Source: Escherichia coli O157:H7
Lineage (GTDB): Bacteria; Pseudomonadota; Gammaproteobacteria; Enterobacterales; Enterobacteriaceae
NCBI RefSeq assembly: GCF_013167455.1
Contig: NZ_CP038328.1
Length of the DNA stretch: 64,000 nt
Direction: 5' to 3' (one strand)
Every line of letters begins with the position of its first letter. Positions within the stretch are counted from its first letter, which is position 1. A program made the translations under genes and the position numbers. A model generated the notes under the pieces. That model was not told where the DNA came from and searched no databases. It was given only the letters and a program-made list of their open reading frames with translations. Shown here in pieces: positions 57,919 through 58,019 of the stretch.

Positions 57919-57943
57919 CGGGGGCAGATTGGCTTCGATGCCG

Positions 57944-58016
57944 CCTTTTCCCCTCACCCTAACCCTCTCCCCAGAGGAGCGAGGGGACCGATCGCGCTCA
58001 ATGTTGCGATCGGTTT
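57944..58016. repeat. GC-rich intergenic repeat (boxC-like) followed by a hairpin, between convergent tusA and zntA
   Basis: ccttttcccctcaccctaaccctctccccagaggagcgaggggac, then palindrome ccgatcgcgc-tcaatgtt-gcgatcgg. Confidence 0.4.
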
Positions 58017-58019
58017 GCC

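Follow-up and report, generated by a model that had tools for sequence, protein, structure and literature searches.

BoxC, or PIT, elements are short repeats of E. coli that were reportedly described by Bachellier et al. in the 1990s and taken up by Hoyne & Maher in 2000-2002. BoxC was renamed PIT element and then TM_ECO, with the consensus CCCTCNCCC-N3-6-GGGNGAGGG-N3-GGGNGAGGG (Holder et al. 2015, PMC4666352), and 23 copies were tabulated in K-12 MG1655 (Holder et al. 2015, Table 1, PMC4666352). Oligonucleotides of types A and B form an intrastrand purine triplex as single strands in vitro, according to CD and NMR analyses (PMC4666352). In the same study the triplex was not detected in vivo by DMS footprinting, and TM loci varied more than the intergenic sites used as controls (Holder et al. 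2015, PMC4666352). The family was also described as the HPG1 group of G-quadruplex candidates, for which CD supported an equilibrium between hairpin and G-quadruplex in vitro; HPG1-type motifs were found near 3' UTRs and between operons, and conserved features of their flanks were already reported using GLAM2 (Kaplan et al. 2016, PMC5100583).

In the window analyzed here, a stretch of 64,000 nt (64 kb) from an E. coli O157:H7 chromosome, tusA (57673-57918, + strand) and zntA (58020-60218, - strand) form a convergent pair separated by a spacer of 101 nt (57919-58019). Both gene calls agree with the RefSeq annotation of an identical O157:H7 chromosome, and RefSeq annotates no feature in the spacer in either O157 or K-12. 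The first-pass annotation of this DNA had placed a repeat element between the two convergent genes, which the coordinates and strands of the genes bear out, and the palindrome strings that it quoted are present, cccctcaccctaaccctctcccc at 57950-57972 and agaggagcgaggggac at 57973-57988. The palindrome is imperfect; its C-rich arm precedes two G-rich blocks, and it can fold back as a hairpin. The features of the spacer and its borders are as follows.

57950-57985, - strand: three-block core of 36 nt, CCCTCGCTCC-TCT-GGGGAGAGGG-TTA-GGGTGAGGGG, corresponding to TM_ECO type A with a C to T change in the C-arm.
57930-58006, - strand: full BoxC type A unit as delimited by nhmmer profile alignment, with a high-confidence part at 57938-58006.
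57987-58014, no strand assigned: perfect 9-bp hairpin with arms ACCGATCGC (57987-57995) and GCGATCGGT (58006-58014) and a loop of 10 nt.
58015-58026, + strand: weak U-rich tail TTGCCTTATCTC, following the hairpin in the tusA sense and overlapping the zntA stop codon (58020-58022).
57907-57948, no strand assigned: 8-bp inverted repeat with arms AAAGGCGG and CCGCCTTT that extends across the tusA stop codon and has its right arm in the 3' flank of the repeat.
57929-58126, + strand: 65-aa open reading frame with a TTG start, judged spurious, whose codons cover first the repeat and then, in antisense, the 3' end of zntA.

Judged by its sequence, the tusA-zntA palindrome is almost certainly one chromosomal copy of BoxC, for which PIT element, TM_ECO and HPG1 motif are synonyms. 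The element and its exact locus are already known, under four names in all. TM_ECO no. 16, a 'type A mm' copy, occupies positions 3,608,684-3,608,719 of K-12 (Holder et al. 2015, Table 1, PMC4666352), with zntA at 33 nt and tusA at 31 nt (Holder Supplementary Table S2, PMC4666352), and the HPG1 member HPGQ 40, a G-quadruplex candidate, is assigned to zntA/tusA at 3608708 (Kaplan et al. 2016, PMC5100583). In the K-12 sequence NC_000913.3, zntA ends at 3,608,649 and tusA starts at 3,608,751, and TM_ECO no. 16 falls between them. Because the K-12 coordinates given in both papers fall at zntA-tusA, the copy in the window is orthologous to the published member, and the spacer of the window is 98% identical to that of K-12. 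The G-strand (- strand) reads GGGG-AGA-GGG-TTA-GGG-TGA-GGGG, with four tracts of at least three Gs separated by loops of 3 nt, and conforms to the predicted G-quadruplex motif. The antiparallel triplets between block 2 and block 3 (G.G:C, A.A:T and T.A:T), as read from the sequence, are intact in the window. The initial suggestion of a dispersed intergenic repeat of E. coli can now be narrowed to the BoxC / PIT / TM_ECO / HPG1 family.

The window allele differs from that of K-12 by a C to T change at position 8 of the C-arm. Owing to this change the strict published pattern misses the window copy. A regular-expression search of the window with the strict TM_ECO motif gave 0 matches, the copy being one base off (CCCTCGCTC) and matching once that position was relaxed, whereas the K-12 orthologue matches strictly. 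The G-strand DNA hairpin comes to -7.7 kcal/mol for the window allele versus -9.2 kcal/mol for the K-12 allele, and the C-strand DNA hairpin to -5.5 versus -8.1 kcal/mol. A 70-mer comprising core and hairpin was searched against 20,395 E. coli records (5,426 genomes); an identical sequence was the best match in ~2,890 records, and ~2,280 records fell into the band of 95-99% identity, which includes the K-12 allele. Catalogues built on the strict TM_ECO pattern therefore miss a copy whose 70-mer recurs unchanged in those ~2,890 E. coli records. The outgroup-like alleles L047 (from a MAG), L100 (a long E. coli allele) and E. albertii carry the K-12 base at the C-arm position, and the T of the window consequently looks derived.

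The motif tabulated by Holder et al. is 36 nt long, whereas the conserved BoxC unit found here is longer and includes both flanks. When the 15 type A copies of K-12 were aligned by MAFFT together with flanking sequence, ~20 nt proved conserved on the 5' side (…AAAA.G.GC.C…C.GTC) and ~13 nt on the 3' side (GAACAG.C.GCA); with profile alignment also considered, the 3' conservation covers ~13-20 nt. An nhmmer profile of the 14 other K-12 type A copies, built without the tusA-zntA locus itself, aligned to the window from 58006 to 57930 with E=1.9e-20 and 68 bits, and a profile of all 23 K-12 copies aligned from 58007 to 57938 with E=7.9e-18. By these alignments the BoxC unit is estimated to occupy ~70-77 of the 101 nt of the spacer.

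Across the species the repeat is dispersed, in line with the copy count that had been proposed as a check on the first-pass annotation. A blastn search with the spacer matched 5,425 of 5,426 complete E. coli genomes at a median of 17 places per genome, and there are 23 strict copies in K-12. The window holds this one copy only, by core count and by profile search, and the 22-mer core occurs once in the 64 kb against 0 occurrences expected. All 23 K-12 copies sit between annotated CDSs, and the 18 K-12 BoxC regions comprise 7 convergent, 9 tandem and 2 divergent gene arrangements. A gene 3' end is thus present in 16 of these 18 regions, in agreement with the remark of Kaplan et al. on 3' UTRs (PMC5100583). 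K-12 copies 19, 15 and 23 (L014:430-495, L012 and L018, respectively) adjoin REP elements, and the neighborhood of BoxC and REPs suggests shared 'repeat-tolerant' intergenic sites. Carriage of BoxC by mobile elements was considered and rejected. Phage matches were negligible (3 of 50,697 records), and plasmids accounted for 34 of 85,063 places in the E. coli blastn search; true-plasmid matches were rare, most plasmid matches being mislabelled chromosomes or megaplasmids. Several 'plasmid' records that matched at 100% are E. coli chromosomes of 4.8-4.9 Mb, and megaplasmids of Sinorhizobium, Azospirillum and Rhizobium gave BoxC-like blastn matches at 80-90% identity. Two Campylobacter phage records matched at 94% and may reflect contamination.

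Next to the core, the first-pass annotation had reported a perfect hairpin with a stem of 8 bp. The hairpin is indeed perfect, with 100% complementary arms, but its stem measures 9 bp. Among 5,000 dinucleotide-shuffled versions of the spacer, only 0.44% had a perfect stem of at least 9 bp with a loop of 3-12 nt, and the RNA fold on the + strand comes to -15.7 kcal/mol, with z = -4.1. Together with the count of the core and the spread of the spacer among genomes, these values show that the feature does not arise by chance. The inner arm and loop (57987-58005) lie within the conserved 5' flank of BoxC, and the outer arm (58006-58014) is locus-specific sequence. On these boundaries the hairpin is chimeric, part repeat flank and part local sequence, and not a separate element. 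The possibility that the outer arm belongs to a longer repeat (the GATGACAAAG... region) was tried and rejected, the profile with 50-nt flanks ending at 58006. The 8-bp inverted repeat over the tusA stop (57907-57948) was likewise rejected as a bidirectional terminator, its fold being about that of shuffled sequences (z -0.84 and -0.68); it is missing in E. albertii and in L047 and is probably fortuitous. It follows from the extent of the BoxC unit, which exceeds 36 nt and explains half of the neighbouring hairpin, that hairpins beside other BoxC copies should be checked before they are read as independent terminators.

The position of these stem-loops between two converging genes raises the question of their role at the RNA level. 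By terminating transcription weakly or by holding back 3'-exonucleases, they may form the structured 3' end of the convergent tusA and zntA transcripts, which is put forward tentatively, as a serious candidate short of a probable one. The main 3'-end candidate would be the 9-bp hairpin together with the UUUGCCUUAUCU that comes after it in the tusA sense. A stronger version, in which the 9-bp hairpin and the BoxC hairpin make up a functional bidirectional intrinsic terminator that stops RNA polymerase from both sides, is rather unlikely. It would suit convergent genes only 101 nt apart, and it draws on the stability and the rarity by chance of the hairpin and on the UUUGCCUUAUCU stretch that follows it on the tusA strand. 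Against it, a consensus scan called neither promoter nor terminator in the spacer, and the tail UUGCCUUA, with 4 U in 8, falls below the threshold of the terminator scan. A U-tract is absent from the zntA strand, where CCCCUCGC comes after the hairpin, and an upstream A-tract is absent from the tusA strand. PIT elements had neither promoter nor terminator activity in the work of Hoyne & Maher as summarized by Holder et al. (cited in PMC4666352), and earlier tests of these elements are reported to have found no effect on conjugation. Published Term-seq tables also speak against a terminator, since those supplements of Adams et al. 2021 that could be consulted list neither tusA nor any coordinate in 36086xx-36090xx, and the accessible supplements of TERMITe hold no entry for tusA or zntA. 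A missing Term-seq 3' end is a weak negative, as tusA and zntA may be poorly expressed.

That the spacer encodes a product of its own, either a small RNA, resembling Hrs13 or originating in the tusA 3' UTR, or the 65-aa protein, is most improbable. The Rfam family Hrs13 matches 57937-58020 from end to end, at 19.7 bits with an E value of 0.039 in 1 kb, and this sub-threshold match was the sole Rfam hit in the spacer. However, the gathering score of Hrs13 is 52 bits, and the E value exceeds 1 if scaled to the whole window. No Hrs13 match reached the gathering score near tusA at 20 loci or species, including Pantoea, Erwinia, Dickeya and Serratia, and the consensus scan found no promoter-like site in the spacer. 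An Hrs13 identity was accordingly rejected in favor of a generic resemblance between two-hairpin sequences. The 65-aa reading frame does exist, but it opens with TTG, consists of repeat sequence and antisense zntA, is not annotated as a CDS by RefSeq in O157 or K-12, and matches no Pfam family. Its description as spurious in the first-pass annotation is upheld.

Two inverted repeats outside the spacer deserve mention. A perfect 22-bp palindrome, ACTCTGGAGTCGACTCCAGAGT, at 60261-60282, precedes the zntA start codon by 43-64 nt and would fit the operator of the MerR-type regulator ZntR in the zntA promoter. At 57633-57656 (+ strand), ~25 nt upstream of the tusA ATG, a terminator-like hairpin GGCGTAAACTAGCGCC is followed by GTTTTTTT; it might act as an attenuator in a leader or mark where a transcript from upstream ends.

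Comparison of strains indicated that the tusA-zntA spacer exists in several states. The short 101-nt allele predominates in E. coli, and 5,032 of 5,426 genomes gave a coverage of 80% or more for a 301-nt query that reaches across the spacer. Spacers are longer, at 260-1,100 nt, in E. albertii and in minority alleles of E. coli. The long spacers contain the BoxC core in varied states, followed by REP/BIME units and often by a 102-aa ORF. The core states are as follows.

L099: BoxC core intact.
L100 and L101: BoxC core partly deleted.
L019 (E. albertii): BoxC core degenerate.
L102: BoxC core absent.

REP sequence was found in L099-L102 and in L019, and another long allele, L020, contains neither the BoxC nor the hairpin sequence. 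The majority 101-nt allele is without the 102-aa ORF and the REP/BIME units. This ORF, the hypothetical protein WP_000385056.1, is found at L102:1155-1463 and, frameshifted, at L100:545-852, as well as in L019 and L020, and has no match to a Pfam family. In L100, L102 and L020 an 11-bp perfect hairpin, GCCTGATAGCC-aga-GGCTATCAGGC, stands right after the zntA stop; it does not occur in the short allele. The perfect 9-bp stem beside the repeat belongs to the short allele carried by most E. coli. In E. albertii and in those three long E. coli alleles where the region is retained it is absent or has 1-4 mismatches, GCGGCTTGCAATCGG in E. albertii differing by 7 nt from GCGATCGG in E. coli, and the MAG allele L047 has a 7-bp version of the stem. 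This distribution counts further against a functional bidirectional terminator. The short allele is probably derived, through deletion of a segment with REP units and the small ORF. Of the marks of a MITE-like mobile element, no clean empty site or target-site duplication was found, and no direct repeats flank the unit; L102, the only allele without the core, shows an imprecise replacement and not a clean empty site. The minority and cross-genus alleles fit a spacer that is repeat-rich and prone to indels but almost always retains a GC-rich stem-loop.

On balance, the BoxC copy at tusA-zntA is probably a near-neutral, structure-prone relic that has no dedicated regulatory job at this site. Indels and decay at the site, which the strain comparison displays, would be favored by the folding potential of the repeat. 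High conservation of the core among copies could, in contrast, mean selection and not recent spread, which argues against a neutral relic. The relic interpretation and the structured 3' end proposed above are mutually compatible. A different function is suggested by the published biophysics, namely a DNA structural switch between duplex, hairpin, triplex and G-quadruplex that pauses replication or transcription, drives rearrangement, or acts as a regulated topological signal. The triplex evidence from CD and NMR and the higher variability of TM loci (PMC4666352), the hairpin/G-quadruplex equilibrium seen by CD (PMC5100583), the four G-tracts of at least three Gs with 3-nt loops on the G-strand and the many indel alleles at tusA-zntA all lend it some substance. 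It is nevertheless unlikely, given that DMS footprinting gave no triplex in vivo, that the duplex wins in the presence of the complementary strand, and that earlier in vivo tests, in the summary given by PMC4666352, had no effect. Moreover, about half of the genomes have the C-arm change, with no evident effect. The varied contents of the spacer match the published variability of TM loci, but a spacer that tolerates repeats fits them equally. Variability may as well reflect tolerance of junk, and REPs also accumulate in this spacer.

The region 3' of tusA was compared across 80 species, with the following contents.

Pantoea and Kosakonia: 0-25 nt, or overlapping genes, after tusA.
Several genera: unique GC-rich hairpins.
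Citrobacter and Klebsiella: REP elements.
Several Enterobacter: type B BoxC at the corresponding position and in matching orientation.
Escherichia and one MAG (L047): type A BoxC with the adjacent hairpin.
L023 and L081: bare two-block BoxC-like hairpins.

Within Enterobacter, L021, L022, L024 and L026 have type B BoxC at ~1743-1806, and L023 has the two-block hairpin only (1751-1778). The BoxC profile matched L023 weakly (E=0.027) and detected no match in L081. The Enterobacter copies could stem from an insertion that is old and shared, or the site may be a preferred one. A GC-rich stem-loop of some origin is found in most short convergent tusA spacers, and its near-constant presence in other species speaks for a terminator between the two genes. 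It also invites the view that selection keeps some stable stem-loop between tusA and zntA and that dispersed repeats are recruited in turn as its supply, which we consider improbable. Under such exaptation, the candidate suppliers would be type A BoxC in Escherichia, type B BoxC or bare two-block hairpins in Enterobacter, and, for Citrobacter and Klebsiella, REPs; BoxC hairpins would insulate convergent genes or structure their 3' ends, and the 9-bp chimeric stem of E. coli would have become fixed after deletion of the REP/ORF segment.

The tusA-zntA spacer offers a compact natural series for testing structured repeats as 3'-end elements of convergent genes, made up of intact, point-mutated, decayed and deleted cores and of alleles that contain REPs or have an additional ORF. 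To the published record of this locus, the present analysis adds an allele that escapes the strict motif, a measurement of how far the repeat unit extends at this site, the finding that the adjacent hairpin is chimeric in origin, and the series of spacer alleles.

Among known systems, Rho-independent bidirectional terminators resemble this locus in placing a stable GC-rich stem-loop between convergent genes, with a partial U-run on one strand. Clear bidirectional terminators elsewhere in the window, such as those at 3459-3491 and 9231-9262, have both A- and U-tracts, whereas the tusA-zntA hairpin lacks the two. The hairpin at 3459-3491 has a near-identical counterpart at 3228-3254, ~230 nt away, both having an A-tract / CCGAC-loop-GTCGG / T-tract arrangement of bidirectional-terminator shape. 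REP/BIME elements share with BoxC the character of dispersed GC-rich palindromic intergenic repeats that favor gene 3' ends, and REPs occupy the same spacer elsewhere. REPs also act as stabilizers of mRNA 3' ends. Unlike REP/BIME, BoxC is without a GTAG-type head and without a known RAYT-like transposase, and the REP consensus (a palindrome of the GCCGGATG...CATCCGGC type) is absent from the spacer of the window. By analogy with RAYT/REP, it may be speculated that the conserved G.A mismatch of the type A hairpin is a recognition mark for a single-strand HUH transposase acting in trans. The closest relatives remain the two published descriptions of the locus itself. The HPG1 'switch' between G-quadruplex, hairpin and duplex is another structural reading of the one sequence that was also interpreted as the TM_ECO triplex, and its member HPGQ 40 (PMC5100583) has the same locus and the same G-strand, GGGGAGAGGGTTAGGGTGAGGGG, as the copy described here. 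TM_ECO no. 16 shares with the window copy the locus, the three-block architecture, the type A second loop TTA, the intergenic position and the conserved flanks.
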